Part shown: piece after piece, positions 8,459 through 38,548 of the stretch
Position numbering within the stretch: position 1 is the stretch's first letter
Layout: each line of letters opens with the position of its first letter
DNA from: a virus
Lineage: Duplodnaviria; Caudoviricetes
Length of the DNA stretch: 64,000 bases
Strand: one strand, 5' to 3'
Virus record (IMG/VR): IMGVR_UViG_2816332320_000003
Location: 64,001-128,000 of that record
Position numbers and translations under genes: made by a program
The notes under the pieces: generated by a model
Databases searched by the model: none
Seen by the model: only the letters and a program-made list of their open reading frames with translations
What the model was told of the DNA's origin: nothing

Positions 8459-8488
8459 TTCGAATCAAATTTCGATTTTATTTGGAAT

Positions 8489-8638
8489 TCATTCATCGTC
8501 CACACTATCTAGGTTTCGACTCGCACAAGATGGACAAAAATGAATTGAAGTTTCTTCTGGCATTAATACCGCAAACTGAAACTCGCAATCCTTACACTTG
8601 TAGATTGAATCATACATCCATTCTCTTATAATATCCAT
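8489..8638 (-). CDS. 49-aa zinc-ribbon protein (not in ORF track)
   Basis: MDIIREWMYDSIYKCKDCEFQF...FCPSCASRNLDSVDDE; AAGGAG RBS. Confidence 0.65.
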   Translation of the reverse strand: MDIIREWMYDSIYKCKDCEFQFAVLMPEETSIHFCPSCASRNLDSVDDE

Positions 8639-8660
8639 TCACTTCTTCTCCTTCTTATAA

Positions 8661-9110
8661 TCAAATGTTCATTTTATCTTGCCTTAGAACTCTTTCCAAT
8701 TCAAACTCCAAAGCACCAATAGAAATAGCCTCTATTTCATATTTTTTGGTCAACAAATCTCTTGGTGCCCAACTTGAGTATATGTTCCATATATACCCAT
8801 CAACCATATGTAGCATTTTCCACCCATAGCGTTCCATTTTAGGCATAGAACCATAGTAGATTCTAACTATGGCAGGAAATACTTCTATGTCGGTATCTTC
8901 TTTAATCTTTAAAGCCAACTTATAAGAGTCTTTGGTGATAAGTGATTTATTAGAAGTGTTCATATTTTGATCAACGAGAAGCTCCATAATAGCTTTCCAG
9001 TTATCATTATCATATTTAGCTTTTACTTCTCTGTATAGCTCGCTGTCTTTCTCATCAAACCAGCGCCAGCTATCTCCCTTTAGCTTTTTGAACAAGTGAT
9101 AGTGTTCCAT
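8661..9110 (-). CDS. hypothetical protein
   Basis: 149-aa ORF in leftward run with RBS. Confidence 0.7.
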   Translation of the reverse strand: MEHYHLFKKLKGDSWRWFDEKDSELYREVKAKYDNDNWKAIMELLVDQNMNTSNKSLITKDSYKLALKIKEDTDIEVFPAIVRIYYGSMPKMERYGWKMLHMVDGYIWNIYSSWAPRDLLTKKYEIEAISIGALEFELERVLRQDKMNI

Positions 9111-9136
9111 TTGCCATCAACCTTCTTAGTTAATAA

Positions 9137-9502
9137 TCACTTCATGTCCTTTTTGAAACTCTCATCAAAATACCATTCAACGTCCCATGCTGCCATACTT
9201 GTTCTCAATTCTCTGTTGCATGAAATGCAGGGTCTTGTAAATTCATCTCTACTTGGACTGATTCCATTTTTCTCAATTACTTTTCTAAGTTTCTCAGATG
9301 GCTCCTGAGTAACTATCATTTCAAATGAATGAGGGTATGACTCACCCTTAAAATCAGAGCTAATAGTTACTAATGCTTCTTCTATCTCTGATTCGTATAG
9401 TGACTGAAACAGTGATCGTTGTTGCTGTACTATCTCTACAGACTCGCCATCCTGCAACAAATCATTCCAGATAATATGAAGGTACATTAAATCTCTCCTC
9501 AT
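9137..9502 (-). CDS. hypothetical protein
   Basis: 121-aa ORF in leftward run. Confidence 0.65.
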   Translation of the reverse strand: MRRDLMYLHIIWNDLLQDGESVEIVQQQRSLFQSLYESEIEEALVTISSDFKGESYPHSFEMIVTQEPSEKLRKVIEKNGISPSRDEFTRPCISCNRELRTSMAAWDVEWYFDESFKKDMK

Positions 9503-9520
9503 TTTCTTTCAGATACTTGC

Positions 9521-10768
9521 TCATTTATAATGTCCACCGATCTTGGCTGCGCGATCTCTTGTTTGCCCAGCAGACGTAAATGAACTTGCCCTCACAATAG
9601 CTGCTTCTCCAAATCTATCTCTAACTAAGTCCATTACTTGATCAATTTTACGCTTTTTCTCCTGATCTTCAAACAAGGTGAGTTGATACACTTCGTCACT
9701 TTCTAATCCAGCAATTGAAACACCAATTCTTCGGATCGGCAACCCATCCCAGTGCTGATGAAATAGCTTTTTAGAATGAGAATATACATCTTCCGTAATA
9801 TTGGTTGAACTCGACAATTTCATTTGTCGGTTAAAGCCTGTCGGACGATCCCAATCAGCTCCCATGCAACTTACATTGAGGACTGAACCTCTAACCTTTT
9901 TCTGCCTAAGTCGTCTACAAACTTGACTGACCATATCCAATAGCACAACATCAATTTCCCAAGCTGTGCAATAGTCTCTAGGTAAAGTCATCCCATTACC
10001 AATTACTTTCTGATTATCATGGGTACTAATTGTTACTGGAGAGCTATCTATGCCATTTGCACATTGCCATAGGACTTGACCATTGACACCCCATTTTTTG
10101 GTAAGGAGTGTTAAGGGTGTTTTAGCCAATTGTCCAATCGTTAAAATGCCCATAAGATTTAAGTGCCTTCTCATTTTGCTACCTACACCCCATAGGTCTT
10201 CCACTGGCTTGTGCCAAATATGCTTCTCAAGCTCATCTTTGCGCAAAGTAAAAATCCCTGATTTGTTCTTTTTGGCAATTATGTCACAACAGACTTTTGC
10301 AAGGATCTTGTTTTCACCAATACCAGCCCTTGACCAAACGCCTGTTTGTATCAGGATATTCTGTTGTATGGCAAGTGCCAATTCTTCAGGAGTGGTATTA
10401 AAAAGGTGTATAGAGTTAGTCACGTCAATGAACAGTTCATCAATGCTGTACGGCTCGACCAGATCTGTATATGATTCAAGAATCCTCGTAATCTGCATTG
10501 ATACGTCTATATACAATTGCATGCGTGGTTGAACTACAATGATATCGATGCATTTCCTTTGTGCTTCCCCTAGCCTATCCGCAGTTGAGATACCGAATGA
10601 CTTTGCTATTGGACAGGCAGCAAGGACAATGCCTGATCTACGTGCAGGATCTCCTGCTACGACAAGCGGCTTATCTTTGTATTTAGGATTCGTTGCTTTC
10701 TCCACAGAGGCATAGAAGCTCTGCATGTCAAAAAGCATAATGATGCGTTCTTTCTTCTTCACAATCAT
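9521..10768 (-). CDS. polYB: Y-family DNA polymerase (PolY2/YqjW, DinB/UmuC family)
   Basis: DMQSFYASVE, EPYSIDE, C-terminal KIGGHYK typical of Bacillus PolY2; LexA boxes upstream. Confidence 0.92.
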   Translation of the reverse strand: MIVKKKERIIMLFDMQSFYASVEKATNPKYKDKPLVVAGDPARRSGIVLAACPIAKSFGISTADRLGEAQRKCIDIIVVQPRMQLYIDVSMQITRILESYTDLVEPYSIDELFIDVTNSIHLFNTTPEELALAIQQNILIQTGVWSRAGIGENKILAKVCCDIIAKKNKSGIFTLRKDELEKHIWHKPVEDLWGVGSKMRRHLNLMGILTIGQLAKTPLTLLTKKWGVNGQVLWQCANGIDSSPVTISTHDNQKVIGNGMTLPRDYCTAWEIDVVLLDMVSQVCRRLRQKKVRGSVLNVSCMGADWDRPTGFNRQMKLSSSTNITEDVYSHSKKLFHQHWDGLPIRRIGVSIAGLESDEVYQLTLFEDQEKKRKIDQVMDLVRDRFGEAAIVRASSFTSAGQTRDRAAKIGGHYK

Positions 10769-10782
10769 ATCACCCCAAATAA

Positions 10783-10823
10783 GAACATTCGTTTGTGTTT
10801 ATTATACACACAAACATACGTTC
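10783..10823. promoter_or_regulatory. pair of LexA boxes flanking the -10 of the polYB promoter
   Basis: GAAC-ATTC-GTTT (10783) and AAAC-ATAC-GTTC (10812) around minus-strand TATAAT. Confidence 0.75.
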
Positions 10824-10886
10824 TTGATACGGTGATTTCTAGAGTGCTGATACTTATCTTGTCTATATTCTGTTAAAAGCCTTTTC

Positions 10887-11102
10887 TCATTTAGTCACAT
10901 ACTCGATTATTTCACTAGGTTCAATAAATAATTGCTCGTTTTCACATTCCACAACGTATTGAATTCTTTTCAGATGGCGATGAAATTCTGGTTTTAATAT
11001 TCGTATCACTGTTCCTGTTTTGACTTCTACCATACCAGTTTGTCGAAATCTTATTCTTTGCCCTTCTTTTGGTCTAAGTGCCAAAAGAACACCCACTCTC
11101 AA
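10887..11102 (-). CDS. small SH3-like hypothetical protein
   Basis: 71-aa beta-rich ORF; stop codon inside junction palindrome 10873-10890. Confidence 0.5.
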   Translation of the reverse strand: MRVGVLLALRPKEGQRIRFRQTGMVEVKTGTVIRILKPEFHRHLKRIQYVVECENEQLFIEPSEIIEYVTK

Positions 11103-11119
11103 TAAATCTCACATTTTAT

Positions 11120-11563: not shown

Positions 11564-11571
11564 TATACTCC

Positions 11572-11844: not shown

Positions 11845-12066
11845 TTAATAAGCTTTTTACATTGGATCAAATTTATTTCTAATATCAAAGCACTTGCATG
11901 ATGCCCCCTTCAAGATACCTCCGTATCTCAAACTGGTCTTTGGTGTCAATCACTGAAATCGCCTTTTGAATTAGCAAATCTATTTCATTTACGCTTAAGA
12001 CGATTTCCTTGGTTTTACCTCTAGCCTTCATACAGATCACCAACTTTCATTAAAACCCTCATTTGA

Positions 12067-12315
12067 TTAGGTTTCTACACTGTATTTCTTTACCCAAGTT
12101 TCGTACAGCAGCTCTCGTTTCTCTGCCTGCTCGAACTTCTTGGATAGTTCATACCAATCTAACTCTCGATGATCTTTTTGTGATGGTATGTTTCTTCTTC
12201 CTAAATCCAATATATCACCAACCATCTTGACATTTCCCTGTTCCATGTAGTTATGCAAAAGATCATTGGTTGGGTATTCATGTTTAACCTCTTGAATAAA
12301 AGCTGCTTCTAGCAT
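12067..12315 (-). CDS. hypothetical protein
   Basis: 82 aa, GGGAGTGG RBS, bounded by junction palindromes. Confidence 0.65.
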   Translation of the reverse strand: MLEAAFIQEVKHEYPTNDLLHNYMEQGNVKMVGDILDLGRRNIPSQKDHRELDWYELSKKFEQAEKRELLYETWVKKYSVET

Positions 12316-12390
12316 AAAACCACTCCCTTTTTCCAGTCAAATTAACATTTCATTCTATATTTATTACACATCCCATTGTTTGCTGAATAG

Positions 12391-12744: not shown

Positions 12745-12886
12745 CAGCAGTAATGTTTATTATATTTTCCACATCTCTGTCAGATTCAATAGCTTCCTGA
12801 ATAGCTTCAGCTTTACTTGATTTTCTATAGAAAGCACTTCGCGATAATCCATTTTTGTATACAATAACGATACTATAATTTTTCAT
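12719..12886 (-). CDS. hypothetical protein
   Basis: MKNYSIVIVY start with GGAGTG RBS. Confidence 0.55.
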   Translation of the reverse strand: MKNYSIVIVYKNGLSRSAFYRKSSKAEAIQEAIESDRDVENIINITAVESIREDV

Positions 12887-13212
12887 GGAATCACTCCGTT
12901 TGACCTTAGAATTCATGAACATAGTGATTAGTATTGACATTTTAAGCATCCTTATCAACCTTTTCTAATCAAATCCCCATTTTATTCCTTTTAGTTATAA
13001 CTCTCGCACAACTCATCTTCTTCAACAGCCCTATTATGAATTACACACACCAAAACTTGTTCTCCATGTTTATCGTCACCACTCATAGAATTACTGCATC
13101 CAAAGCAGTCTAAAAATCGATGACTTTGAATTCTTTCTGTAGCTGTTTAACAATTTTATCTTTGCTCAATTTTATCTAACACCTTTGACAGTCCTTTAAA
13201 ATGCCAATTTGA

Positions 13213-13431
13213 TTATGATTTACAGAAACACCATCCACATCTACAGATAAAAGCGCCACAATCTGAGCACATTTTATATTCAGTAACTAAACTTTTTATC
13301 AGTGGCTCTTTACATGATTGGCAGCGTTCTTCATTGCAAATTTTATTCCAAGAGCGAGATATATTATGACACTCAAGACATTCACTTACTCCTTCTCTAT
13401 TAATGGCTTTTCCGCAATGACATCTTCGCAC
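13213..13431 (-). CDS. Cys-rich zinc-binding protein
   Basis: multiple CxxC motifs, AGGAGG RBS. Confidence 0.6.
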   Translation of the reverse strand: MRRCHCGKAINREGVSECLECHNISRSWNKICNEERCQSCKEPLIKSLVTEYKMCSDCGAFICRCGWCFCKS

Positions 13432-13460
13432 AGTCCATGCCTCCTAATGAAAACGATATT

Positions 13461-13886
13461 TTATTCAGGCAAATCTTTTTGATAACTATCCAATATAAGC
13501 TGGTTGAAGATTTTAAACTTATGAGATAAATGCTTTGGGATTATTTGTTCAGCTTTCCTCATTCCTCTTATTTCTAATTGTAAATACTCCTCTTTGCTAC
13601 TACATCTAAATCCTTCAGGGTTCTCTTCATGGTCGTAATAATGACCTATCTCATGAACCAGTCCTAACAGTATAAAGGTCGAAAGATCAAAATCATAGAA
13701 TCCATATTTCTTTCCTTTTTTATACACTTCTTCTATCCTGCTGCAATCATAAACAATACTATTCATATTAGGATCAAACAACATTGAATAATGCTCATCT
13801 AATTCCTCTTCAATCAAGTCGCAGAAAAATTGATGTTTTTCCTTTAGCGTCTCATATTGTTTCATAATCAGTTCTTTAGTATCCAA
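13461..13886 (-). CDS. HExxH zinc-metallopeptidase-like protein (ImmA/IrrE-like motif)
   Basis: LGLVHEIGHYYD...LEIRG. Confidence 0.55.
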   Translation of the reverse strand: MDTKELIMKQYETLKEKHQFFCDLIEEELDEHYSMLFDPNMNSIVYDCSRIEEVYKKGKKYGFYDFDLSTFILLGLVHEIGHYYDHEENPEGFRCSSKEEYLQLEIRGMRKAEQIIPKHLSHKFKIFNQLILDSYQKDLPE

Positions 13887-13954
13887 ATCAACACTTCCTT
13901 CTTTTTTGAAAAAAGGTTATGCTTTCTTTCTTAATCAAATCGCTGTTTTTTCAC

Positions 13955-15919: not shown

Positions 15920-16072
15920 TGTTAATACCTCTCCTTCATTTTCAAATTACCTTCTTATTGCAATAACCATCTCTCAAACCCTTTATTTGTTATCCAACGA
16001 AGCATTGCTCTTCCGTTGAATGACAAATACATTCCTCCATTCATATTCTTATCAAATCTTGTTTTCATTTGA

Positions 16073-16665: not shown

Positions 16666-16965
16666 TTATTGTTCAATAAATACTACTTCTGCCCCAAGCA
16701 AGTCCATATCACTTACAAATTTAGCAACAAACAATGGATTTCTTGATAGTCTAGAATGGTTTAATGTAATAATCTTTTTAAATCCTCCAAGCTTAACTCT
16801 TGAAATTAGTAAATCAAGTTGAGGTTTATTTGGTGACAAGCCCGATACCCCAAAGTCTTGAAAAAGTACTAGACTAGCACTTCCAACCTCTTTCATGCAA
16901 CTCTCAATTTGTTGATGCGCTGCCTCAGTGTCATGTGTTGCAGTTCGTACATAGATTGCTACCAT
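16666..16965 (-). CDS. stand-alone serine-recombinase catalytic-domain fragment lacking the nucleophile Ser
   Basis: AIYVRTAT (cf. YxRVST), D.GVSG, SRLSRN; only 99 aa. Confidence 0.65.
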   Translation of the reverse strand: MVAIYVRTATHDTEAAHQQIESCMKEVGSASLVLFQDFGVSGLSPNKPQLDLLISRVKLGGFKKIITLNHSRLSRNPLFVAKFVSDMDLLGAEVVFIEQ

Positions 16966-16992
16966 TTATCTTCATCCTTTCAAATCTTCATT

Positions 16993-17208
16993 TCATTCAA
17001 AGTTTTCATTGTAAAAACGTATTAACTTCTCCATTCCCTCCTTCGTTAACGTAAACGAATATTGTTGCTCTTGTCCTTTGTTCTGATAGTGAAAGCTTAT
17101 GGTGTTTTGAGCAACTACGGAATCTACATGAATAACAGCGTCAACCGTTGTGTCCGAATCAAATACATCGTGTTCATGATGATTTAACCTTAATATCAAA
17201 TCAGCCAT
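16993..17208 (-). CDS. hypothetical protein
   Basis: bounded by palindromes at 16979 and 17227. Confidence 0.6.
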   Translation of the reverse strand: MADLILRLNHHEHDVFDSDTTVDAVIHVDSVVAQNTISFHYQNKGQEQQYSFTLTKEGMEKLIRFYNENFE

Positions 17209-17248
17209 TTGTCTGTCCCCTTTCAAATGAAAACCATCTTTTATTCCA

Positions 17249-17605: not shown

Positions 17606-17640
17606 AAAAACTGCATCCCTTTCCGAATCAAAATCTTCTT

Positions 17641-18174
17641 TTATCGAACTGTTATTTCATATGTACCTGTCCACTGCCCCTTGGTATAAGTACCATTCAT
17701 AAACAGTGGCATTTTGAATGGTACTTTATCTCCATCATTAGCTCGAACATACTGTGAACCTGTCCCAGCAACTTCTCCATTCGTGTTGTAAAGAACTACA
17801 TCAATGGTAGTTCCCATAATGCCAGCCTTAGTAATTTCTGCTGTGCCTGTTATCTTTGAGCCTATACCATCAATTTGTATATTAACGTTGCTAAAATTCG
17901 CACTAACTGGAGTAGCTGCTACCTGCTGATAATACTGTTGCTGCTGAAGGGTTTGCTGGGCAAGAACCGCCTGAAGTTCAGCATCTTGTTTTTGAGATTG
18001 TTCCATACTGATCCAGCCAAAGTTAGAATCAAATCGCTCTGTTTCATTTGTGAAGAGATTGGTTCTGTATGTGTGGTTCCCAATCTTCTCTTGTTTCCAT
18101 TGATTCATCCAAGCATAAGTGCCAATTCCTAATAATAAGACACTCGAAATCACCACGAGACTAATCTTCTTCAT
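17641..18174 (-). CDS. secreted/membrane-anchored protein
   Basis: N-terminal signal/TM segment, Q-rich linker, beta-sandwich-like C-terminus. Confidence 0.65.
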   Translation of the reverse strand: MKKISLVVISSVLLLGIGTYAWMNQWKQEKIGNHTYRTNLFTNETERFDSNFGWISMEQSQKQDAELQAVLAQQTLQQQQYYQQVAATPVSANFSNVNIQIDGIGSKITGTAEITKAGIMGTTIDVVLYNTNGEVAGTGSQYVRANDGDKVPFKMPLFMNGTYTKGQWTGTYEITVR

Positions 18175-19024: not shown

Positions 19025-19060
19025 TTAATGAAATTCTCCTTTTATTCTTTGTTCTAATAA

Positions 19061-19288: not shown

Positions 19289-19323
19289 GTTCTTGTCACC
19301 ACATTCCCGATAAAGTATTGATT

Positions 19324-19866
19324 TTAACTAAAATGTCTTCTGAAATTGGGATAAAACGTTTCCCCAAAAGCTATAGCATCTTCTCGGTTTTCACGAGGAT
19401 CATTAAGCCATGGCTTAATCAAATTAAATAATTCATATTCAGTGGGCATCCATTGTGAATACACTATATTTAGTTGACCATTTCTTTTCAGTGAAAGAAG
19501 ATGGCTTTTAACATTTGAAATTTCCCTAACATCAACTATGTCAACTCTACTAACAGCGACTTGTTCTTCCGACCATGATGTACTTTGGGAGAACAGTGCA
19601 TTATCTACTTTATACACATATCCTTCTGACTGACGATATCTCCAATTAAAAGCACCAGTGACCTTTTCTGATATAGTAAATACACCGAATTTATCCCTAC
19701 CCATATCAAAGATATGACCTCTTCCACTACGATGAGCAAAAGTAGCAGCTACTATTGGATCATGAGTTGCGTATACATATTGACTACCAGTTTGAGGTTC
19801 AAGATATGGTAAATTCTTAAAGGGTGATGCGTGATAAAGAAATTGACTCAACCTATTCCTCTCCAT
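19324..19866 (-). CDS. possible ADP-ribosyltransferase-fold protein (Arr-like H-Y clade)
   Basis: LYHAS...LEP...YVYATHDPIVA...GYVYKV...E. Confidence 0.45.
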   Translation of the reverse strand: MERNRLSQFLYHASPFKNLPYLEPQTGSQYVYATHDPIVAATFAHRSGRGHIFDMGRDKFGVFTISEKVTGAFNWRYRQSEGYVYKVDNALFSQSTSWSEEQVAVSRVDIVDVREISNVKSHLLSLKRNGQLNIVYSQWMPTEYELFNLIKPWLNDPRENREDAIAFGETFYPNFRRHFS

Positions 19867-19884
19867 TCCCGATCAAATTAGACT

Positions 19885-20019
19885 TTAATCCAATTCCTCA
19901 ATATCTCCTTCGAGATATTCTTCATTAAAAGCCTCACCACAATTTAAGCATTTCCATTTACTGAGTCCTTCTTCGATCAACGATTCTTTTCCACATGCTG
20001 GGCATTCTCTGTCTCCCAT
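19885..20019 (-). CDS. 44-aa zinc-ribbon protein (not in ORF track)
   Basis: MGDRECPACGKESLIEEGLSKWKCLNCGEAFNEE; AAAGGA RBS; stop inside palindrome 19872. Confidence 0.65.
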   Translation of the reverse strand: MGDRECPACGKESLIEEGLSKWKCLNCGEAFNEEYLEGDIEELD

Positions 20020-20048: not shown

Positions 20049-20276
20049 CTATTTGCTGTTATGCTGCTCTATCATCTTCTGAATCTCTGCTAATAACTTC
20101 GGATCATCTGGCAGCTCAATCTTGTTTTGCTTCTTGATGACAATTTCCTTGTTCTCAGTTACTTCAACTGATAGCATATCACCATACTCTGCACCAATTA
20201 GTTTCAACTGTTCAGTAATTGAGACTCCCAAGCTAGTTCCAATCTTGATGACTTTTCTCTCCTGCAATTGGTTCAC
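20049..20276 (-). CDS. AbrB/MazE/SpoVT-family DNA-binding protein
   Basis: RKVIKIGTSLGVSI...GDMLSVEV...IVIKK swapped-hairpin signature; own TTGCAC-N17-TATAAT promoter. Confidence 0.75.
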   Translation of the reverse strand: MNQLQERKVIKIGTSLGVSITEQLKLIGAEYGDMLSVEVTENKEIVIKKQNKIELPDDPKLLAEIQKMIEQHNSK

Positions 20277-20426
20277 CTCACCTTACATTTCCTTATATAC
20301 CCATTATAGCGACTATTATATAATAGTGCAAGATGATTTCGGAGAAAACTTTTTCTGTTTATATATTTTTGGTTATTAAAACAATAACCTGTCATATTGA
20401 CAGGTCTATTTGTTTACATGATATTT

Positions 20427-22731: not shown

Positions 22732-22763
22732 TGATATCCTCTTTCCTATATAAAATCACATTT

Positions 22764-23186
22764 TTATTCAAAAGTTATTTCTTCAAAATCCAAGTTATTA
22801 TCTTTCAACTTAGCCCACACTACTTTCAATTCCTCGTCAGTGATAAACCCCCTGTCTGCGTTATTAATTATCACATTAAACAATAAAGCTTCGTCCAAGT
22901 TGTAATCCTCATCATAGATTGAGTCAATGTCGGTCTCATTTGAACCAAAATGATATGTTCCTGCACCATAAATAATCATTCTACCAGTGTCTTCTATTCC
23001 CCAATCTTTCGCCCCATAATCCGAAAAACACATTGCTTGTGGGTCTGTTTTTGACAACCAAAGAGCCTTTATTTCTTGTCCGTTTGCTTTCATTTTGACA
23101 GTGTACAGTGAACCATACTTACCATTGACTTTGAACCATTTGCCATCAGCAATCGTATCTAAAAATTCTTGTTTGGTCATATCCAT
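22764..23186 (-). CDS. hypothetical protein
   Basis: bounded by palindromes 22750 and 23194. Confidence 0.65.
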   Translation of the reverse strand: MDMTKQEFLDTIADGKWFKVNGKYGSLYTVKMKANGQEIKALWLSKTDPQAMCFSDYGAKDWGIEDTGRMIIYGAGTYHFGSNETDIDSIYDEDYNLDEALLFNVIINNADRGFITDEELKVVWAKLKDNNLDFEEITFE

Positions 23187-23210
23187 TCTCCTTATAAAAT
23201 AAGTCTTTTA

Positions 23211-23618
23211 TTATCTTGTGCAGCACGTTAATGCAAGTAATTTGCTTCTTGGTGTTTTAGGGTTATTAATTTTACTAAAAATCTGTTCTAATCTGTCGAT
23301 TTGCCTAGTAATTAATGCATTAACAATTCCTCTTGGAATGTAAACTTTCTCAATTTCAACCCAGAAAGTATTGTCCTCCAAGCTGTCTAACGACTTCCAT
23401 TCTTTAAAGTGTCCTCTTGAATTGTCTTTGTAGATAACAACCACTGGGAAGCTTGAACCTAGAGCCTCAATATAAAAATCTAAGAATTCCTTTTTTAGGC
23501 TTCCTTTGAATGAATAAAGAAATCCCTCAAATTCAGATGATTCAAATTTTATTTCTTTCATGATTTCACTAACCATCTTTATCACCCCTGCCCGATACAA
23601 TATGTTCTTTATATCCAT
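23211..23618 (-). CDS. hypothetical protein
   Basis: ORF overlapping HNH gene end; start probably 23576. Confidence 0.55.
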   Translation of the reverse strand: MDIKNILYRAGVIKMVSEIMKEIKFESSEFEGFLYSFKGSLKKEFLDFYIEALGSSFPVVVIYKDNSRGHFKEWKSLDSLEDNTFWVEIEKVYIPRGIVNALITRQIDRLEQIFSKINNPKTPRSKLLALTCCTR

Positions 23619-24231
23619 TACTCAGCCATACATAAATTTTAAAGTATCGATCTCTGTTATAAATGTCGTTTTTCTTATTATACCAGTTATTTAAGCTTTC
23701 TGTACGTTTACTCGAATTACAACCATGACAACTGGGAATGCAATTCTTCAAGTCGTTACGACCATTGAAAATAACATGTTCTTTATGTAGACCTTGATTC
23801 CTATACTTATTCTTGTGGTCATCCTCTGAAAGACCACAGTATGCACACTCAAATTGAAAAAATGTTTTACACGCAATCCATTCTTTTTGTGTTATGTTAT
23901 GTTTTCGTTGGCTTCGCCTCTTTTCATTGTACGTTTTTATTTTATTCTTGTTATTTTTTCGCCACTTCGAAGCATACTGCCTTTTGAAGTCTCCCAAATT
24001 TCTATCAATTATTTTTTGTTTTTCTTTCAGCCTTTCCTTGTTCTTTTTATACCATTGCTTTTTGTATGCCATATATTCTTCTTTATTGTCTACTGCATAT
24101 TTCCTACTATTTTCTTTGAAACAATCCCTGCACCATGAATTAAGTCCATCTTTTCTGTTTTTATCTTTGTAAAAATATTCTTCAGTAGCAGGATAGGCTG
24201 CCTTACATTTTGTACACGCTTTATTCAACAT
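23569..24231 (-). CDS. HNH endonuclease with N-terminal zinc finger
   Basis: CTKC..CRDC; CAYCG...HKEHVI...NCIPSCHGCNSSK. Confidence 0.85.
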   Translation of the reverse strand: MLNKACTKCKAAYPATEEYFYKDKNRKDGLNSWCRDCFKENSRKYAVDNKEEYMAYKKQWYKKNKERLKEKQKIIDRNLGDFKRQYASKWRKNNKNKIKTYNEKRRSQRKHNITQKEWIACKTFFQFECAYCGLSEDDHKNKYRNQGLHKEHVIFNGRNDLKNCIPSCHGCNSSKRTESLNNWYNKKNDIYNRDRYFKIYVWLSNGYKEHIVSGRGDKDG

Positions 24232-24351: not shown

Positions 24352-24768
24352 TTAGATTGCCAAACATCCAACCTTATTTGTTTTCATTTTCTTATTTTTA
24401 ATTGCTAAAAAATCTTGAGGTGTAATTAAGCTCAAACTTACCTCTAAAGCTTCATTTACGTCTTCCATGGTTTTAAAATTCAAAGTTGCCACTTTACGAG
24501 ACAATCGTTGTTTATCAATTGTTCTAATCTGCTCTAGTAGAATAACACTATCTTTTTCGATGTCATAATCTTTCGCGCTAATTTCAACATGAGTTGGCTG
24601 TCTTCCCTTCGAAATTTGAGAAGTAATTGCCGCAACAATCACCGTTGGGCCAAATTTGTTTCCAATGTCATTTTGGATGATAAGGACTGGTCTGTTACCA
24701 CCTTGCTCACTTCCTACAACTGGAGAAAGGTCAGCTAAGTAGATCTCCCCTCGATATACTGGCTTCAA
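24352..24768 (-). CDS. mazF: MazF/PemK-family endoribonuclease, close to Bacillus NdoA (EndoA)
   Basis: [32 protein letters not shown]...VAAITS...[17 protein letters not shown]; catalytic Arg and Thr retained; own promoter, no upstream antitoxin ORF. Confidence 0.93.
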
Positions 24769-25292: not shown

Positions 25293-25384
25293 GTTTGTTC
25301 TTATATTATGCTACCAGTTAAGGAAAGATGCAAGCAAAAAAGACTTCGCTCTTTTTGGCAAAGTCTTCTAATGAAATGCGTATT

Positions 25385-26335
25385 TTATTTAGTCATGATC
25401 TGACCAAGAAGAGATGCAACTTGTTCTTGAATGTTTGAGGCTACAAGGCTGCCTGTAATCCCTTCTGAAATATTTCTTACAGATTTTAAGGTCTCTGCAA
25501 TTACATTTAACTTTGGCTTTGGTGATTTAACTTGCAATTCTAATACACCAATGTCTGATTCTAGAATTTCTTTCTGTTCCGTGTCATGTACTTCTTTAGA
25601 CATTTTTTTAAGACTTTCAATTAAATGATTTAAGTCGCTCATTTTAATTGAAGAAGTCATTGTGTTAGTTTGGGTTGAATTTTCTGTATGTTGTTGTAAC
25701 TGAATGTTGCCCCCAGATGAGTTAAAGATATTGTTGTTTGTGATAATTTGAGCTGTACTCTTTGCCGCAGTTTCTTCATCTCTCTTTGAAAAGGACATTC
25801 CTTCGCCCAAAACTCCATCCTCCTCTAGTTTTAAACTCCAATTTAGTACAATGGCTCTTACTGCTTCAATAATTTTTTGAAATTGAGATGCAGTAATGTC
25901 TAATTTGCATACCATTGGAAACTCCATATACTTCATAAGATACTCTTGTGTCTTATCTGGGAAGTTCATTTGCAAATAACCTGTTTTAGTTTGTCCTAAC
26001 AAATGCTCGATTTCGCCAACTGAAATATTTATCTTTCGAACAGTTAGTGATTGAGACAATTTTTCGTCTGAAAAAATTGCAGGTATATTTAACCCATTAT
26101 ACGGATTTTTAGCTGTCACTACCCCTCTAATTTCCCGATAGTCAGGTAAACTGTCCAAGGAACCCTTATACCCATTTAGTTCATTGTTAATCCATGCTTC
26201 AAAATCACGAACTTTCAATTTTTTCGCGACCATTAAAGCCTTTCTCAAAAGATCGTTAATCTTACATTTTCCGTCTACTGCTTCTCTTTGAAGTTCTAAA
26301 ACTAGTGAAATGCTGATCCCCCCTTTTTGTCCCAT
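25385..26335 (-). CDS. AbiTii-domain protein (putative anti-phage)
   Basis: SLVLELQREAVD..INDLLRKALMVAKKL...WINNELNGY...PDYR N-terminal AbiTii signature. Confidence 0.75.
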   Translation of the reverse strand: MGQKGGISISLVLELQREAVDGKCKINDLLRKALMVAKKLKVRDFEAWINNELNGYKGSLDSLPDYREIRGVVTAKNPYNGLNIPAIFSDEKLSQSLTVRKINISVGEIEHLLGQTKTGYLQMNFPDKTQEYLMKYMEFPMVCKLDITASQFQKIIEAVRAIVLNWSLKLEEDGVLGEGMSFSKRDEETAAKSTAQIITNNNIFNSSGGNIQLQQHTENSTQTNTMTSSIKMSDLNHLIESLKKMSKEVHDTEQKEILESDIGVLELQVKSPKPKLNVIAETLKSVRNISEGITGSLVASNIQEQVASLLGQIMTK

Positions 26336-26393
26336 TTCATTCTACGGTATAAATACCATATCAAAATTTGACTATTTAAATCAATTGTCTCTT

Positions 26394-26777
26394 TTATTGA
26401 AAACACTCAGTGTAAAAGTACTCCTCACCCGTTAACGGATCAATGAAAGATTCTTTCTCATAATACGGTCTATAATCATAATCATTTGTTGAGCCTTCAT
26501 GCTTGCAAAATGCATCGATGCACCACAATGGAAACCCAGACATTGCATGTGTAAACCTAATGACCCTAACGCCAGTGATTTTTCGCTTGAATAGAGCCGA
26601 TGCAAATCGAATCATTTCTTCATCTTGAACCCTATGCCATTCATCACAATTCATATTGATACTAATATGCTTCACTGCTGCTGACCATTGTTCACTGTTA
26701 ATTCTGTCAGTATAAACACTAGTTATGTAGTCGCCTTTATAGTAATTTCGCGGGAAATTCACTTGGGCAATTAACAT
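26394..26777 (-). CDS. hypothetical protein
   Basis: 127-aa ORF; stop inside palindrome 26380. Confidence 0.6.
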   Translation of the reverse strand: MLIAQVNFPRNYYKGDYITSVYTDRINSEQWSAAVKHISINMNCDEWHRVQDEEMIRFASALFKRKITGVRVIRFTHAMSGFPLWCIDAFCKHEGSTNDYDYRPYYEKESFIDPLTGEEYFYTECFQ

Positions 26778-27078: not shown

Positions 27079-27115
27079 TTTGATACCCTCCTTATCGTTA
27101 AAATCAGACTTGTAT

Positions 27116-27319: not shown

Positions 27320-27342
27320 CCTTTTCCAATAAATCTATGCTT

Positions 27343-27825
27343 TCATTGTGATAAGAGTTTATTTCGCACATTCACAATTCTTCTTTCAATAATTTCTATA
27401 TGCTCATCCAATGACTTCCCAGATTCAATTACATCGATAAGTCCCCAGTAAATCTCTTCTGATAAACTTGTGAGTTCATATTCAATTTGTCCAACCTGTT
27501 GGCGTATTTGTGAGTAAGAAATGTCCTCTTTATTGAGTCTCTCTGTTAAATGCTGTACTCTTTGCCTGACATTCACTAATAACACTTCCTTTTTAATCAA
27601 ATTTTTACAATCACTTATTTTTACATGTTTGTATTTGCTATTGCCCAACCTCACTACCTCAAACATCATGTCGCCAATGTTATACCTATATCTCCCTTTT
27701 CCGTCCACTCTGGTTATGCCTTCAGCCAATTGAGAGATGTAGTTGATATTATTGGATATGCATACCTCTTCCCAAATAAACGCCGTATCGTTTATTAACT
27801 GTACGTACTTGAATAGTTTGTACAT
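27343..27825 (-). CDS. hypothetical protein
   Basis: 160 aa, AAGGTG RBS. Confidence 0.6.
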   Translation of the reverse strand: MYKLFKYVQLINDTAFIWEEVCISNNINYISQLAEGITRVDGKGRYRYNIGDMMFEVVRLGNSKYKHVKISDCKNLIKKEVLLVNVRQRVQHLTERLNKEDISYSQIRQQVGQIEYELTSLSEEIYWGLIDVIESGKSLDEHIEIIERRIVNVRNKLLSQ

Positions 27826-28343: not shown

Positions 28344-28372
28344 TTGATCACCTCATTCCATGAAATTTTACT

Positions 28373-28543
28373 TTATTTGGTTTCTGTGTATAACTTGCAG
28401 CATTCAACGCGAATTCCTTTATAGCCTGTTTCTGTCTTCACAAAATACATATCCCAAGTTTTTGCATGTACATCGAACATTTGACCGATACGATTTTTGT
28501 ACCAACTTTCATCATTCAAACAGGCTGTTACTTGTACCCGCAT
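28373..28543 (-). CDS. small SH3-like protein
   Basis: MRVQVTAC...WYKNRIGQMFDV; GAGG RBS. Confidence 0.55.
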   Translation of the reverse strand: MRVQVTACLNDESWYKNRIGQMFDVHAKTWDMYFVKTETGYKGIRVECCKLYTETK

Positions 28544-28623
28544 TTTTCCTCTTCCTTTCTTAATCAAATTCCACTTTTATTGAGTTATACCAATCAAGTT
28601 TTATTTAATATATTTATTCAAGC

Positions 28624-29185: not shown

Positions 29186-29273
29186 TTCCCAATCAAATCT
29201 CAATTTTATATAGAGTATTATTTTAATTATTATGTAATCCACATATGTATAATTTGCATATGTGGATTACAAA

Positions 29274-29894: not shown

Positions 29895-29925
29895 CTCCCC
29901 ATCAAAGGATCATTTTATGGGGATA

Positions 29926-30219: not shown

Positions 30220-30448
30220 GCGCAATCCCTCATTTTCAATCAAAATATAGTTTGATTCAGTTTTAAGCTTATGTATTAGTCGCTTTGTTATAAATATCAT
30301 ATCAAATATCTGTATATTTTACAATATATTTTTATATGTTATTCCAACGTAATTCCAAACGAATTAGCAGTTGCAACGATAAGAACTATCAGGATTGTAC
30401 CTATAGCTGCTGTTATACCTCCCATTAATTCATCGAATTGTTGATCAC

Positions 30449-34469: not shown

Positions 34470-34609
34470 TTCGATCCGCTCCCCAATATGTATTAGGCAT
34501 TTCTTAACTGTCTTTATTTTATCATTTATTTTAAGTTAATACAATGCTTTTATCATATTTTTTTGTACGTTATTTTCTCATAATCCGATAAAAGGTAGAT
34601 TTTATAGAA

Positions 34610-35428: not shown

Positions 35429-35511
35429 AATATCTATCCTTTTCCTGTTTTTGAGAGTTCAAATTAATACATTCTTTTATTAGGAATAAGAAAAACCGCT
35501 TTTATGGCGGT

Positions 35512-35817: not shown

Positions 35818-35951
35818 CTCAGACCGCCTCCTATGTATTTGCTTCTTGATTACATTATACGATAGTCACTTTGCTAAATCAAGTATTTGTATATTTTTAT
35901 ATATTATATCCAAATAAAAAACCGATTAGATTAGGAAAAGAAATAACCAGA

Positions 35952-36218: not shown

Positions 36219-36385
36219 ATTAATCCGCTCCTCGATATGTATTTCTTACTTATCTATATTTTACCACAACAGAACTAGTTGTCAATGTATTATTTTTATA
36301 ATTTTATATTTAATAAAACTGCAATTTGATTGAAAACCAAAGAATCCATTTACACGGCTTCTGCTTGTTAATTCCATATTGCTAC

Positions 36386-36796
36386 TTAATTACTTTTTAG
36401 ATTGACACACTTTAATCCTTTTTCGTCCGTAATTCCATGTTTAGTTAAATAATTTGATATTTCTATATCAGTTGGATTCTCAATACGTTCTTCAGCGTTC
36501 CATCTTGACGAGCCATCAGCACAAAAATAAGCCATATCAACAATTCCACTTGGTTCTTCCTTATAACATCTAGCATATTCATCCTTTAATTCTTCAATTT
36601 CTTCATCGTTAGTACCACTACCAAAATGTTCTTTAAATTTGATAGTAGATTTAGTTAATAATACCTTTAGATCATTATTCTGTGGAAAATGATCAACTAG
36701 AATTACCTCCGCATTGTCGTGTAATAGAGAATAATCTTCAGAAATAACTCTAACAAAACCATAGTCCCCATTGGGTTTAATCCGCTTTTCCCACAT
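36386..36796 (-). CDS. hypothetical protein
   Basis: 136 aa, GAGGGTG RBS. Confidence 0.6.
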   Translation of the reverse strand: MWEKRIKPNGDYGFVRVISEDYSLLHDNAEVILVDHFPQNNDLKVLLTKSTIKFKEHFGSGTNDEEIEELKDEYARCYKEEPSGIVDMAYFCADGSSRWNAEERIENPTDIEISNYLTKHGITDEKGLKCVNLKSN

Positions 36797-36845
36797 AGGA
36801 AAACCACCCTCTCCTTATGCATCTAATTTAAGTATAGCAAATCAA

Positions 36846-37046
36846 TTACAATACAACCAGATTGGTATCATTACTTGGAGATAAGACAAAGCCTTTCCCC
36901 TCGTCATCCTCTTTGGCAGTCTCACAGTATGCAACGTTACCCCAATAGCGATTAGGGTATGTGTGATCAGGTTTAGAGTGAATTGAGTAGATATTGATTT
37001 CACCTTTGCAATGATTGTCCATTTTACATATTCCCATGCAACGCAT
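36846..37046 (-). CDS. hypothetical protein
   Basis: AGGAGG RBS. Confidence 0.55.
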   Translation of the reverse strand: MRCMGICKMDNHCKGEINIYSIHSKPDHTYPNRYWGNVAYCETAKEDDEGKGFVLSPSNDTNLVVL

Positions 37047-37093
37047 ATGTATGACCTCCTTTTTAAATTTTATATTATAAATCTAGTTTGATA

Positions 37094-37351
37094 TCAAACA
37101 ACTTCCACAGAAAGAACTTCTTCAATCATTTCATTGATATCATTAACATGTATTTCGTTTACTGTAACCTCATCATTACATATCTCAATAGTGCAATTAT
37201 TGGTTAGAATTGTGTAACTGATTGCATTGAGCAGGAACACATCATAATCAATTGGTTCATGCTTTACGTTATGTGATTTAAGAGCTTTTTCAGCTTCCTT
37301 GACCGTTCTTTTTGTTAATTGCACACCAGCGTATCTTTTATTACTTAACAT
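37094..37351 (-). CDS. hypothetical protein
   Basis: AAGGAG RBS, bounded by palindrome-like sites. Confidence 0.55.
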   Translation of the reverse strand: MLSNKRYAGVQLTKRTVKEAEKALKSHNVKHEPIDYDVFLLNAISYTILTNNCTIEICNDEVTVNEIHVNDINEMIEEVLSVEVV

Positions 37352-37414
37352 TGTTGGTCACTCCTTATAATCATTCTAAATAACCTTTCATTGTGACACT
37401 ACACTACTACCAAT

Positions 37415-37978
37415 TCATTGCGCCCACTGTTCTAGAGCCTCCAGAACACCTTTCTTTGTCTTTGGAAGTTTAACACCTGTCATTTTAGTAAAGAACTCTT
37501 TAGAAGCATCGTTCCAGCCTTTTGGATGTCCTAGACATGATACAAGGTGTGGCATGTACTTATTGCGGATTGAGTAGATAAAAACCTTGTGGTCATCTCT
37601 TGGTTGAATGTTGTAGCCATATGATTTATTGAGATATTCTGATCCTATACAATCCTTATCATCGTCTGAAATTTGGCTCCTTGCCATTTGTATTAATTCT
37701 CTTCCCTTTTCTATCTTCTTTTCCTTCTCTGCTGCTTTGCGCTCTCTTTCTATTCGTTGATCACGTAAAGACCAATCGATATAGAACGTTCCAGTAATGC
37801 CCTTCATTTTGACTTTAAAAGACTTACCTTTTATGTACTCTTGTAAGATATTATCAGGCACGTAAAACCCTTTTTTATTGTCGGATCTATAGAATAGATG
37901 ACCTTTCTCATCGGTCTTTTGGTAATACCATTTTGTTGTTTTCGTTCGCAGGATAATTTCATTAAATTTGTATTCCAT
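37415..37978 (-). CDS. hypothetical protein
   Basis: 187 aa, GGAGG RBS. Confidence 0.65.
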   Translation of the reverse strand: MEYKFNEIILRTKTTKWYYQKTDEKGHLFYRSDNKKGFYVPDNILQEYIKGKSFKVKMKGITGTFYIDWSLRDQRIERERKAAEKEKKIEKGRELIQMARSQISDDDKDCIGSEYLNKSYGYNIQPRDDHKVFIYSIRNKYMPHLVSCLGHPKGWNDASKEFFTKMTGVKLPKTKKGVLEALEQWAQ

Positions 37979-38017
37979 TATGTATCATCCTCCATTATTT
38001 TGTTTGAAAGACCGCTT

Positions 38018-38239
38018 TTATGAGATTCTTTGAATAAAGGGATAGTGTTTTGCAACTGGATCATTTTCTACATCTTCCCCTGTATCAGCCCATACAACTT
38101 GCATAAATCCAGTTTCATTGACTCTAGCCATACGTCCAAACAAATCTCCACCACCAATACATACAAACTCAGTTCCCCTTGCCTTATTAATCATCTCATT
38201 GATATAAGTAACATTTGCACGTTTTTTCATTATATACAC
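38018..38239 (-). CDS. hypothetical protein
   Basis: stop inside palindrome 38004. Confidence 0.55.
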   Translation of the reverse strand: MYIMKKRANVTYINEMINKARGTEFVCIGGGDLFGRMARVNETGFMQVVWADTGEDVENDPVAKHYPFIQRIS

Positions 38240-38281
38240 CTTCTTTGTTTTTATTTATATAAAATAACCATTTGCTTACAT

Positions 38282-38488
38282 TTACTCTTTGATTGTTTTT
38301 AGCCTCTTATTGATCAATTTTAGTTCCTCTTCGAAGAACTTAACTTGTCCCTCATTATTCTGTTCCTTGTGGTATTTAATTGCTCCTTCTGTGTAGCCTT
38401 TTCTATAAAGTAAACTTTCTTTTTTTGCAATAGACATTACAGAATGACAAGCAGTTGAACCCTTGTATTCAAAGTCAATATAAGTCAT
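38282..38488 (-). CDS. hypothetical protein
   Basis: GGAGG RBS before MTYIDF. Confidence 0.55.
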   Translation of the reverse strand: MTYIDFEYKGSTACHSVMSIAKKESLLYRKGYTEGAIKYHKEQNNEGQVKFFEEELKLINKRLKTIKE

Positions 38489-38548
38489 TATGGAGACCTC
38501 CATTTATGTATTTTTAACTTACAATAAAATAGTCATTTCATAAGAATA

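Follow-up and report, generated by a model that had tools for sequence, protein, structure and literature searches.

In phage T4, the elements called PeSLs are regulatory motifs through which modular shuffling takes place via homologous recombination (PMC2839356, PMC4122927). For the repressor MrpR, ChAP-seq revealed only ten peaks, all of which are located at SPBRE promoters (PMC10516654). Here we examine an SPbeta-like prophage in which an 18-base palindrome lies between many of the early genes. The analysis centers on a 64,000-nucleotide window (positions 64,001 to 128,000 of IMG/VR record IMGVR_UViG_2816332320_000003), and all coordinates below refer to this window unless genome positions are specified.

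The exact pattern WTVAAA-N6-TTTBAT yields 50 strand matches in the window, compared to a mean of 2.38 and a maximum of 10 in dinucleotide shuffles. When a weight matrix of 21 columns was applied to the whole 163,172-bp phage with a cut-off of at least 11 bits, 93 sites were recovered versus 6.7 ± 2.2 in 60-bp local shuffles, which establishes that the palindrome reported in the initial annotation is real and enriched. The early arm (genome 1-112 kb), which carries minus-strand early and accessory genes, holds 84 of the 93 sites, and the remaining 9 are in the late arm (112-163 kb) among plus-strand late genes. Placement at gene junctions is likewise borne out, in that crude gene calls put only 9 of the 84 early-arm sites within a gene, although coding cover is ~85%. 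On the gene strand, the upstream stop codon TAA coincides with core positions 2-4 in 24 sites, as had been proposed, and a stop codon abuts the core in 12 others. The next start codon most often follows the core by 17-21 nt. The site is a duplex-type 18-bp palindrome with arms aATVAAA and TTTBATt, and is listed without a strand ('.'). The family of phages with this motif is marked by a YonO-type single-chain RNA polymerase (48547-51135, plus strand), which matches SPbeta YonO at 51% identity across 842 aa. The possibility that the motif serves as a YonO promoter was considered and rejected.

Of the 38 palindrome starts listed initially, 28 score at least 11 bits and 30 at least 9 bits, whereas four (10873, 11866, 22303, and 28131) are doubtful. 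Four other weak starts are decayed real sites, because their centers (N6, gene strand) recur among the related Brevibacillus prophages used for comparison (L071, L072, L090, and L091). These are 15941-15958 (AGGTAA, 8.3 bits; center in an intact L072 site and in L091), 27098-27115 (GTCTGA, 7.9 bits; center in intact L071 and L072 sites), 35463-35480 (GAATGT, 8.2 bits; center in L072 and L091), and, on weak evidence, 28360-28377 (GTAAAA, 5.8 bits; center in L090 and L091). Three sites were absent from that list: 30239-30256 (CTATAT, 18.1 bits; L072 counterpart ATGAAACTATAG), plus 10980 and 16424, which are probably coding-sequence coincidences. The description of the units as mostly promoterless is only partly right, given that sigmaA-like promoters occur after sites 36313-36330 (TTGCAG, 20.4 bits; center in L091; TTGACA-17-TAAAAT), 35914-35931 (TCGGTT, 14.3 bits; center in L072 and L091), 8464-8481 (TCGAAA, 19.9 bits), and 25371-25388 (TACGCA, 20.1 bits; center in all four relatives). 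At 25371, a terminator precedes the promoter, both after the site, and the upstream genes differ: AbiTii in this phage and L071, P22_AR_N in L072. Other junction palindromes are present at 8660-8677 (TGAACA, 19.3 bits), 11102-11119 (TGTGAG, 15.3 bits), 38004-38021 (GCGGTC, 10.1 bits; fits the exact pattern), 38259-38276 (TGGTTA, 11.6 bits; one mismatch), and 38524-38541 (TGACTA, 18.8 bits).

The N6 centers are position-specific: each junction within one genome has a different center, and relatives keep that center at the corresponding junction. Among the five Brevibacillus prophages (this phage and the four relatives; 10 pairs), each pair has 10-18 centers in common versus 0.27-0.81 expected, and these are collinear in all 10 pairs. 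Within the genome, near-identical center pairs number 23 compared to 34.4 ± 5.5 expected, so that over-dispersion is only mild. Examples of common centers include those at 13196-13213 (TTGGCA, 15.1 bits; L071, L090, and L091), 13447-13464 (TATCGT, 17.6 bits; L090 and L091), 19028-19045 (GGAGAA, 19.2 bits; L071 and L091), 26380-26397 (GAGACA, 16.9 bits; L072 and L090, with GAGACG in the L071 counterpart), 27329-27346 (GCATAG, 15.5 bits; L071, L090, and L091), and 28563-28580 (GTGGAA, 21.1 bits; L090).

Most of the sites shared between these prophages are 18-bp islands, meaning a shared 18-mer with unrelated sequence on both sides, and at 7-14 shared sites per pair identity is under 50% in both flanks. 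Islands relative to L071 are found at 12336-12353 (TGTTAA, 14.4 bits) and 12968-12985 (TGGGGA, 21.5 bits), at 13934-13951 (CAGCGA, 13.4 bits; one arm mismatch), the centers of these three also being present in L091, and at 22750-22767 (ATGTGA, 16.0 bits), where a protein search with the upstream gene (22764-23186) gave no relative. The sites at 19872-19889 (GTCTAA, 13.1 bits) and 29192-29209 (TTGAGA, 19.1 bits) are islands relative to L071, L072, and L091 and to L071, L072, and L090, respectively. At 29901-29918 (TGATCC, 16.2 bits), 100% identity to L071 across the 18-mer gives way to 25-28% in the flanks. Two adjacent sites, 17627-17644 (GAAGAT, 18.1 bits) and 17227-17244 (GATGGT, 17.6 bits; island relative to L072), have centers present in all four relatives, and the interval between them holds unrelated DNA in L072 (382 versus 274 bp). 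Other same-centered intervals contain DNA that is unrelated, with no match by blastn or blastp, and unequal in length (for example 691 versus 1013, 426 versus 290, 2099 versus 614, and 614 versus 1477 bp). With the same centers in the same order and unrelated genes between them, the palindromes have the appearance of fixed points of crossover at which genes are swapped.

Homology breakpoints relative to the related prophages occur in or at the 18-mer, in agreement with the earlier proposal that the palindromes bound exchangeable gene units. One case is a 2,348-bp block with 99.96% identity to L071, which extends exactly from core position 2 of its upstream site (19310-19327; TCAATA, 10.8 bits, one mismatch; center in L072, L090, and L091) to position 18 of its downstream site (16979-16996; TGAAGA, 14.7 bits). 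Identity drops to background at positions 0 and 19, directly outside the 18-mer. Homology to L071 begins at core position 7 of site 12050-12067 (TGAGGG, 18.2 bits), such that the center and right arm are common and the left arm is different. It stops 5 nt past the core at 16051-16068 (ACAAGA, 15.5 bits; center in L071, L072, and L091) and 6 nt past the core at 23194-23211 (GACTTA, 16.9 bits; center in L071, L072, and L090), and homology to L072 begins at core position 4 of 34588-34605 (TCTACC, 17.9 bits). Six of nine boundaries of blocks with at least 90% identity to L071 are at sites, whose cores account for 1.8% of the sequence. Of 74 isolated exact matches (at least 15 nt) that an unbiased scan found outside homology blocks, 49 fall on sites. 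Some boundaries are elsewhere, such as at a promoter near 20331.

Arm variants segregate with the adjoining cassette. At 16 sites with homology on one flank, mismatches average 0.44 in the adjoining arm and 1.12 in the far arm (7 versus 18), which places crossovers between the arms, in the center. Where both flanks are homologous, N6 divergence is 3.0% versus 4.2-4.8% in the flanks. Because the centers diverge about as fast as their surroundings, they give no separate indication of being under selection.

The motif is also carried by SPbeta (about 40 palindromes), FADO, Geobacillus E3, Kirov, and prophages of Paenibacillus and Lachnospiraceae, whereas no enrichment was detected in SPO1 or Lactococcus phage 949. 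In these large Firmicutes siphoviruses the arms are kept across genera, from Bacilli to Lachnospiraceae, and centers are in common across genera only at chance level. Among SPbeta, phi3Ts, SPR, Goe13, and Goe11, centers are again collinear in 10 of 10 pairs, and blocks end at core positions 1-2 or 17-18, never 3-16.

We consider it about an even chance, judging from comparative sequence evidence, that the palindromes serve as fixed joints at which crossovers exchange gene cassettes between related phages. The common arms would be recognized by a conserved protein, and recombination would take place only between joints with the same center, with the crossover within that center. If so, an unrelated allele would take over the position of a cassette and gene order would be kept. 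A dedicated site-specific enzyme, most plausibly a tyrosine-type recombinase, might carry out this reaction, and part of the sharpness of the boundary pattern may come from selection for intact genes.

Two candidate enzymes are encoded by the phage. The first is a YopP/SroD-like protein of 345 aa with a tyrosine-recombinase fold (46866-47903, minus strand; Pfam Phage_integrase, 2.4e-9), which is 30% identical to SPbeta YopP (E 3e-36) and gave no match when compared with YopR. Four distant homologues all retain its residues R168, K194, H256, K259, H283, and Y293, with K259 at the usual place of the second catalytic Arg. The second, a YomM-like ORF (genome 132152-133156), is a family-conserved paralogue with the same R-K-H-K-H-Y active-site pattern, including the Lys. 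Lactococcus phage 949, which lacks motif enrichment, has both paralogues. SPbeta YopP/SroD was reportedly described as an auxiliary repressor by Brady et al. in 2023. The Lys in both candidates, the case of phage 949, and the repressor description weigh against the joint reading, as do the short arms, the block boundaries away from sites, the mild over-dispersion, and the flank-like divergence of the centers.

A less probable but still credible alternative is that the palindrome is a binding site for a conserved dimeric DNA-binding protein, such as an early-gene silencing or timing factor or a nucleoid-type protein, and that exchange is secondary. The palindrome would be the sole short identity between unrelated cassettes, and RecA or a phage Sak4-like annealing protein, coupled with selection for intact genes, would generate the mosaic. 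The T4 PeSLs offer a precedent for a regulatory motif as a recombination point (PMC2839356, PMC4122927), and a mosaic origin of this kind has been proposed both for them and for Botstein's 'linker' sequences. The consistent location of sites between stop codon and RBS fits this explanation, as does the conserved promoter near 20331, likewise a block boundary. In addition, centers that vary between genera and evolve like homologous flanks need have no function beyond identity by descent. However, continuous identity at differing arms is only ~12 bp (AAA-N6-TTT), very short for homologous recombination, and yet both sides of 7-14 island sites per pair have seen a crossover. The motif also has no known regulator, with MrpR ChAP-seq peaks confined to SPBRE. 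Sites decay or vanish (15941, 27098, and a 40-nt indel near 23597) without loss of adjoining genes, and the palindromic arms, conserved as widely as they are, would be unaccounted for unless a second function is added.

It is improbable that the sites are instead operators of an SroD/E/F repression module that silences the prophage, similar to the stoperators of mycobacteriophages, which Brown et al. reportedly found in 1997 to sit in short intergenic gaps as these sites do. The phage does encode a MrpR/SroF-like master repressor (2748-3773, minus strand; Pfam MrpR_N_CB 4.8e-27, MrpR_C_cat 1.8e-19) and an SroE (DndB-like) protein in addition to the YopP/SroD-like protein, and a role for SroE at the sites is conceivable. 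But the SPBRE of SPbeta (ACAAATACAAAWAATATGTATA) and the 26-bp SroF box of phi3T are long, asymmetric, and unlike the palindrome, and SroF binds as a monomer. We therefore reject the motif as an SroF/MrpR operator, and the SroF/DGQHR repressor sites offered as an alternative in the initial annotation do not fit. Furthermore, ten MrpR peaks do not match about 40 SPbeta palindromes, even SPbeta and phi3T have different repressor operators although the arms are the same across genera, and neither position-specific centers nor crossovers within them would be accounted for.

We give very little weight to an RNA-level signal in polycistronic early mRNA, such as a small AU hairpin or a protein-bound element immediately 5′ of each ribosome-binding site that affects processing, stability, or translation, because despite the location of the site in the transcribed spacer, a selected hairpin is rejected by the lack of covariation at positions 3/16 (11 Watson-Crick pairs versus 15.1 expected), the commonest form (ATAAAA..TTTGAT) mispairs, the site adjoins the upstream stop even when a terminator and promoter precede the next gene, and position-specific centers beside unrelated downstream genes have no rationale in RNA.

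Integron-type capture and shuffling, as first suggested, is not supported, since the Brevibacillus centers are collinear and none of 54 homologous blocks is at a changed address. Integrons also differ in that the site here is a duplex-type palindrome without hairpin covariation, no attI or common cassette promoter was identified in the phage, and the only integrase-fold ORF put forward as the driver is most similar to SPbeta YopP. The best reading of these comparisons is that the palindromes would act as exchange joints requiring matching centers. Cassette exchange with heterospecific lox or FRT sites would then have a natural equivalent in such joints. The arms and 6-bp central region share the geometry of tyrosine-recombinase core sites, although lox, FRT, and dif arms are longer than the 6-8 bp conserved here, and the inner arm is similar to difH (AGTTATGAAAA; PMC5357621).

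The phage record is a single contig of 163,172 bp with 35% G+C, of which the window covers bases 64001–128000, and the chromosome GCA_000296715.2 CP023474.1 (6.64 Mb) carries the same DNA as a prophage. Related contigs with near-identical proteins are labelled Brevibacillus brevis or Brevibacillus sp. Genome positions 1–112 kb (the early arm; genome positions are those of the whole record, all others those of the window) hold more than 200 ORFs, mostly small and on the minus strand, and the late genes occupy 112–163 kb on the plus strand (the late arm). The phage belongs to the SPbeta kind. It encodes a YonO-type RNA polymerase (48547–51135; 51% identity to SPbeta YonO), an HU-like ORF (51356–51676), a 341-aa MrpR (SroF)-like protein that matches the MrpR (SroF) domains (2748–3773, minus strand), and a 467-aa DndB-like homologue of YopQ/SroE (3766–5169, minus strand). 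A 205-aa protein with an HNH-associated repeat adjoins the SroF- and SroE-like genes (2748–5841, minus strand), and a YopP/SroD homologue (46866–47903) sits 41 kb from them. The interval that separates the accessory array from the YopP-like gene contains a gene for a 282-aa GIY-YIG endonuclease (41392–42240, minus strand).

The initial annotation had described an 18-bp palindrome, WTVAAA-N6-TTTBAT, that recurs at the junctions of accessory genes, and both its abundance and its placement were borne out. There are 50 strand matches in the window versus 2.38 in shuffles. An iterated weight matrix (consensus aATVAAAw-N4-wTTTBATt), judged against 60-bp local shuffles that preserve local composition, finds 93 sites in the whole phage versus 6.7 (84 early-arm and 9 late-arm sites), and de novo palindrome scans returned ATAAA-N8 and TAAAA-N6 as top matches. 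Among the 38 coordinates originally proposed, 30 reach at least 9 bits and 4 weaker ones are backed by relatives; 4 are doubtful, and 3 sites had been missed. On the gene strand, the sites read a-ATAAAA-t-N4-a-TTTKAT-t, followed by a ribosome-binding site. When the 18-bp core is numbered 1–18, information content is limited to positions 0–6 and 13–19, flanking the six middle bases that we call the centre.

Within the early arm, 9 of 84 sites fall inside called genes. At 24 sites, the TAA stop of the upstream gene coincides with core positions 2–4, and at another 12 the stop directly adjoins the core; the start codon of the next gene lies most commonly 17–21 nt 3′ of the site. Where a spacer contains a terminator or promoter, the site remains beside the upstream stop codon; promoters and terminators, where found, adjoin the palindrome and never lie within it. 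The units have the proposed form (site, ribosome-binding site, ORF, and a stop that meets or enters the next site), and, as described below, they are exchangeable. The sites span more than 100 kb, and the nearest integrase-fold gene lies 8 kb past the last of them.

Close relatives were reached via 90%-identity protein clusters because a protein search with the gene at 22764–23186, which lies between two perfect sites, found no relative. The window and segments of four Brevibacillus prophages (L071, L072, L090, and L091) were then compared in all ten pairings. Each pair has 10–18 centres in common versus 0.27–0.81 predicted by column shuffles, and every pair keeps its shared centres in an identical order. 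The majority of these sites are islands, in which the 18-mer is 78–100% identical and the 40 nt on either side match at the random level; per-position identity drops from near 1 within the 18-mer to about 0.3–0.5 at positions 0 and 19. In many cases, the segments that a given pair of centres encloses in two phages are unrelated and differ in length, with no blastn or blastp match. For example, unrelated segments occupy the intervals from TGATCC to TTGAGA (691 versus 1013 bp), GACTTA to ATGTGA (426 versus 290 bp), ACAAGA to CAGCGA (2099 versus 614 bp), and TGGGGA to TGTTAA (614 versus 1477 bp). Between GAAGAT and GATGGT, L071 is identical to the window and L072 is unrelated.

Ends of homologous segments often coincide with the palindromes. 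A 2,348-bp block with 99.96% identity between the window and L071 runs from core position 2 of site 19310 (sites are named by their start in the window) to position 18 of site 16979, and outside this block the sequence is diverged or unrelated. Boundaries of blocks with at least 90% identity fall at sites in six of nine cases, although sites make up 1.8% of the sequence. A scan that makes no use of the motif places 49 of 74 isolated exact matches (at least 15 nt, outside homology blocks) on sites, and several of the others correspond to promoters or to sites that have decayed; the scan used k = 14–16, since chance matches dominated at k = 12. At the 16 sites with homology on one flank, mismatches total 7 in the near arm and 18 in the far arm; per arm, they average 0.2 where both flanks are homologous and 0.98 in islands. 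These counts indicate that arm variants move with the adjacent cassette, which would put the crossover between the arms, in the centre. The suggestion that breakpoints in relatives coincide with the motif is thus upheld. None of 54 homologous blocks of at least 120 bp lies between different centres in two phages. As far as these alignments indicate, cassettes are exchanged in place, with no shuffling. The exchangeable slots hold defence-type cargo.

Individual loci add some detail. An AbiTii-domain gene occupies 25385–26335 (minus strand), and a relative has a P22 antirepressor-domain gene at the same address. The gene calls show no antitoxin gene alongside a PemK/MazF-type toxin gene at 24352–24768 (minus strand). 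The 99-aa product of 16666–16965 (minus strand) consists of a serine-recombinase (Resolvase) N-terminal domain alone; each of the five Brevibacillus prophages has a called resolvase-domain gene (99–111 aa) at the equivalent position, and the best protein match between the window and L071 in this interval is merely 37% identical. Near 23597, the genes at 23569–24231 and 23211–23576 overlap with no spacer, and L071 has 40 additional bases there that contain a stop codon and the palindrome ATCCAATATAACTTTGAT, indicating that small indels can add or remove sites. A cassette at 20057–20331, also found in L071 and L072, pairs a 75-aa gene with a conserved sigmaA-like promoter (ttgcac-17-tataat); its boundaries lie away from any palindrome, the left one being the -35 box.

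Similar behavior is evident in the SPbeta group (SPbeta, phi3Ts, SPR, Goe13, and Goe11), where blocks end at core positions 1–2 or 17–18 and never at 3–16, and where all ten pairs show collinear centres. The Goe13 site ATAAAATATTCCTTTTAT has a SPbeta-like block on its left and a phi3T-like block on its right. Across genera, shared centres are at chance level (8 versus 7.65 for a Paenibacillus prophage and 7 versus 4.7 for SPbeta), and thus the addresses are not deeply conserved. Where homology extends over both flanks, divergence is 3.0% in the centre and 4.2–4.8% in the flanks, a comparison with too little power to decide. Within the genome of this phage, centres are only mildly over-dispersed (identical pairs, 1 versus 3.4; near-identical pairs, 23 versus 34.4 ± 5.5). 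Given these three sets of data, the centre is a label common to one gene pool rather than a deeply conserved code.

The palindrome is widespread among related phages. SPbeta has 40 sites versus 6.3, likewise arranged in stop-site-RBS units, and FADO has 22 versus 3.2 in 50 kb. In a Paenibacillus vulneris prophage, there are 81 genome matches versus 7 for a control pattern, most of them grouped within about 110 kb next to yonO. Enrichment is also seen in a Bacillus rugosus prophage, Geobacillus virus E3 (25 versus 0), Staphylococcus phage SPbeta-like (10 versus 0), Bacillus phage Kirov (23 versus 0), and vB_BcoS-136 (15 versus 1), and more weakly in a Mediterraneibacter (Lachnospiraceae) prophage. 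The arms are identical among phages of Bacillus, Geobacillus, Staphylococcus, Paenibacillus, and Brevibacillus and the Lachnospiraceae prophage. The palindrome is absent from SPO1 and is not enriched in Lactococcus phage 949. A YonO-based scan of genome contigs yielded 56 loci, but their 10-kb flanks are uninformative because they hold few sites, as do those of yonO in the window phage. Megablast of window positions 8–30 kb against a phage collection gave no matches, and two viral-contig scans returned distant relatives or none. The junction palindrome is not described in the SPbeta papers that we searched. The SPbeta record NC_001884 contains about 40 copies, for example before yorT/mtbP, after yorZ, and between yosR and yosS; the two features annotated there as "palindrome" are other sequences.

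Comparison establishes these sites as boundaries of exchange at which the partners carry the same centre, and it indicates that the crossover falls within that centre. We infer that exchange probably depends on the identity of the centre, and site-specific recombination of the tyrosine-recombinase type is the best single account. In such a reaction, strands would be exchanged across an overlap of 6–8 bp that must match between partners, and this account would explain why palindromic arms are kept across the phage family. More tentatively, we propose that a dedicated recombinase encoded by SPbeta-type phages carries out natural cassette exchange at about 40–100 heterospecific sites per genome. 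The common arms would recruit this enzyme, and the 6-bp centre would be the positional address of each joint. Co-infecting or resident relatives could then replace any one accessory gene by an unrelated allele, leaving gene order intact. We regard this full proposal as a serious possibility that falls somewhat short of probable.

Two genes are candidates for the recombinase. The first, which the initial annotation had named as the possible driver, is the ORF at 46866–47903, which encodes a homologue of YopP/SroD (30% identity, E 3e-36) but of neither YopR nor YomM. Its domain match is to the general Phage_integrase model only, its closest protein is SPbeta YopP, and a search of solved structures found no sequence relative; R, K, H, K, H, and Y are invariant among YopP-like proteins. 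The second, a YomM-like protein with a tyrosine-recombinase fold, is encoded within the late operon at genome 132152–133156 (positions 4152–5156 of L089, the stretch beyond the window), 4 kb past the window end. This gene is unusually highly conserved: identities are 65% to SPbeta YomM, 70% to the Geobacillus virus E3 protein, and 60% to that of the Paenibacillus prophage, versus 51% for YonO. Its PHLFKAS segment aligns to PHVLRHA of XerD. Both candidates retain Arg-I, the His residues, and the Tyr where the alignment reaches, with Lys replacing the second Arg. The motif occurs in every YonO phage sampled, although less strongly in the Lachnospiraceae prophage, and Lactococcus phage 949 has both recombinase paralogues but no enrichment of the motif; no clean presence/absence contrast between enzyme and motif results.

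Phage genomes are mosaics, and how their breakpoints come to lie at gene boundaries has been disputed ever since the modular theory appeared in 1980. One view invokes random illegitimate recombination followed by selection, and the other special linker sequences. In this phage and its relatives, mosaic boundaries are marked by a defined 18-bp element with a position-specific centre, and because SPbeta, a model phage open to manipulation in B. subtilis, carries the element too, the breakpoint question becomes directly testable. If a dedicated recombinase is indeed involved, the sites would be a physical form of Botstein's hypothetical "linker" sequences. If an enzyme reads them, they would also offer dozens of naturally orthogonal recombination sites, a ready-made multi-site toolkit, and would explain the rapid turnover of defence, counter-defence, and toxin cassettes in these large phages. 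Even under general recombination, the element shows a phage gene pool that keeps gene order while swapping unrelated genes.

The main rival to a site-specific enzyme is that the palindrome has some other role and is the sole homology available, such that short-homology recombination together with selection for intact genes produces the pattern. A similar case has been argued for the promoter-early stem-loops (PeSLs) of T4, which are short conserved intergenic motifs amid small non-essential genes and are composite cassettes of a strong sigma70-type promoter and a stem-loop terminator (PMC2839356, PMC4122927). Like PeSLs, the junction sites mark where the indels and replacements that distinguish related phages begin and end. 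Because PeSL copies resemble one another, different copies recombine, giving deletions and mini-circles. In contrast, each junction copy has its own centre, and none of the 54 blocks reveals exchange between different positions. Moreover, the junction site is an 18-bp palindrome with AT-only arms that is neither promoter nor terminator. Continuous identity at the sites is often just about 12 bp, even though many have been crossed on both sides, which weighs against the short-homology reading.

The integron model put forward in the initial annotation fares less well. As in integrons, small accessory genes are arrayed as units, each ending in a recombination site that may include the stop codon. 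However, attC, an imperfect inverted repeat, has several times the length of the 18-bp junction site, and its paired positions must stay complementary because it recombines as a folded single strand. In the junction sites, the variable arm positions 3 and 16 form 11 Watson–Crick pairs versus 15.1 expected under independence, and the commonest form, ATAAAA..TTTGAT, mispairs. Because these positions do not covary, a hairpin, whether of RNA or of an attC-like single strand, is not under selection, and we rule this reading out. Integron cassette order varies between arrays since capture occurs at attI, beside intI and the common promoter, whereas the phage order is fixed, with position-specific centres collinear in 10 of 10 pairs. 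Neither capture at one end nor a change of order is seen, and no attI or common cassette promoter was identified in the phage.

The SroF (MrpR) operator, part of the alternative raised alongside the integron model, can be set aside. SPBRE, the operator of MrpR/SroF in SPbeta, lies in promoter regions (PMC10516654); derived from ChAP-seq target genes, it is the asymmetric sequence ACAAATACAAAWAATATGTATA, with about 10–12 copies in SPbeta. The phi3T SroF protein binds a 26-bp asymmetric box as a monomer. Like the junction sites, SPBRE is a repeated element of SPbeta-type phages, and it is tied to a protein with a tyrosine-recombinase fold. However, both boxes are unlike the palindrome, which is a separate element also present in SPbeta and which occurs 93 times in this phage, at stop codons. 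Mycobacteriophage stoperators are asymmetric, orientation-dependent, and immunity-group-specific repressor sites, whereas the junction site is palindromic and its arms are identical across phages of several genera. A YonO promoter is ruled out, given that YonO has a single promoter, upstream of yonK (PMC5467207).

The preferred reading, site-specific recombination, finds its nearest parallels among tyrosine-recombinase sites. In dif, two half-sites accompany a 6-bp central region in which cleavage and exchange take place (PMC5357621). Like dif, difH, lox, and FRT, the junction sites combine inverted arms with a 6-bp central region to which crossovers appear to map, and the difH arm AGTTATGAAAA resembles their inner arm, ATGAAA(A). 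The junction arms do not appear to resemble the B. subtilis dif site. They are also shorter than those of dif, lox, and FRT (6–8 bp versus about 9–13 bp), and both candidate enzymes have Lys for the second Arg of the R-K-H-R-H/W-Y active site of tyrosine recombinases. The pdif (XerC/XerD) sites of Acinetobacter plasmids, 28-bp dif-like sequences with a 6-bp central region that are used by host XerCD, likewise bound accessory units. However, pdif modules move between plasmids, whereas the phage units keep one address. With heterospecific lox or FRT sites, exchange occurs between same-centre sites only, and a segment between two different centres is swapped in place. The junction sites seem to follow the same logic, with same-centre partners and replacement in place of the segment between two centres, but they occur naturally, with about 90 of them arrayed along a single phage genome.
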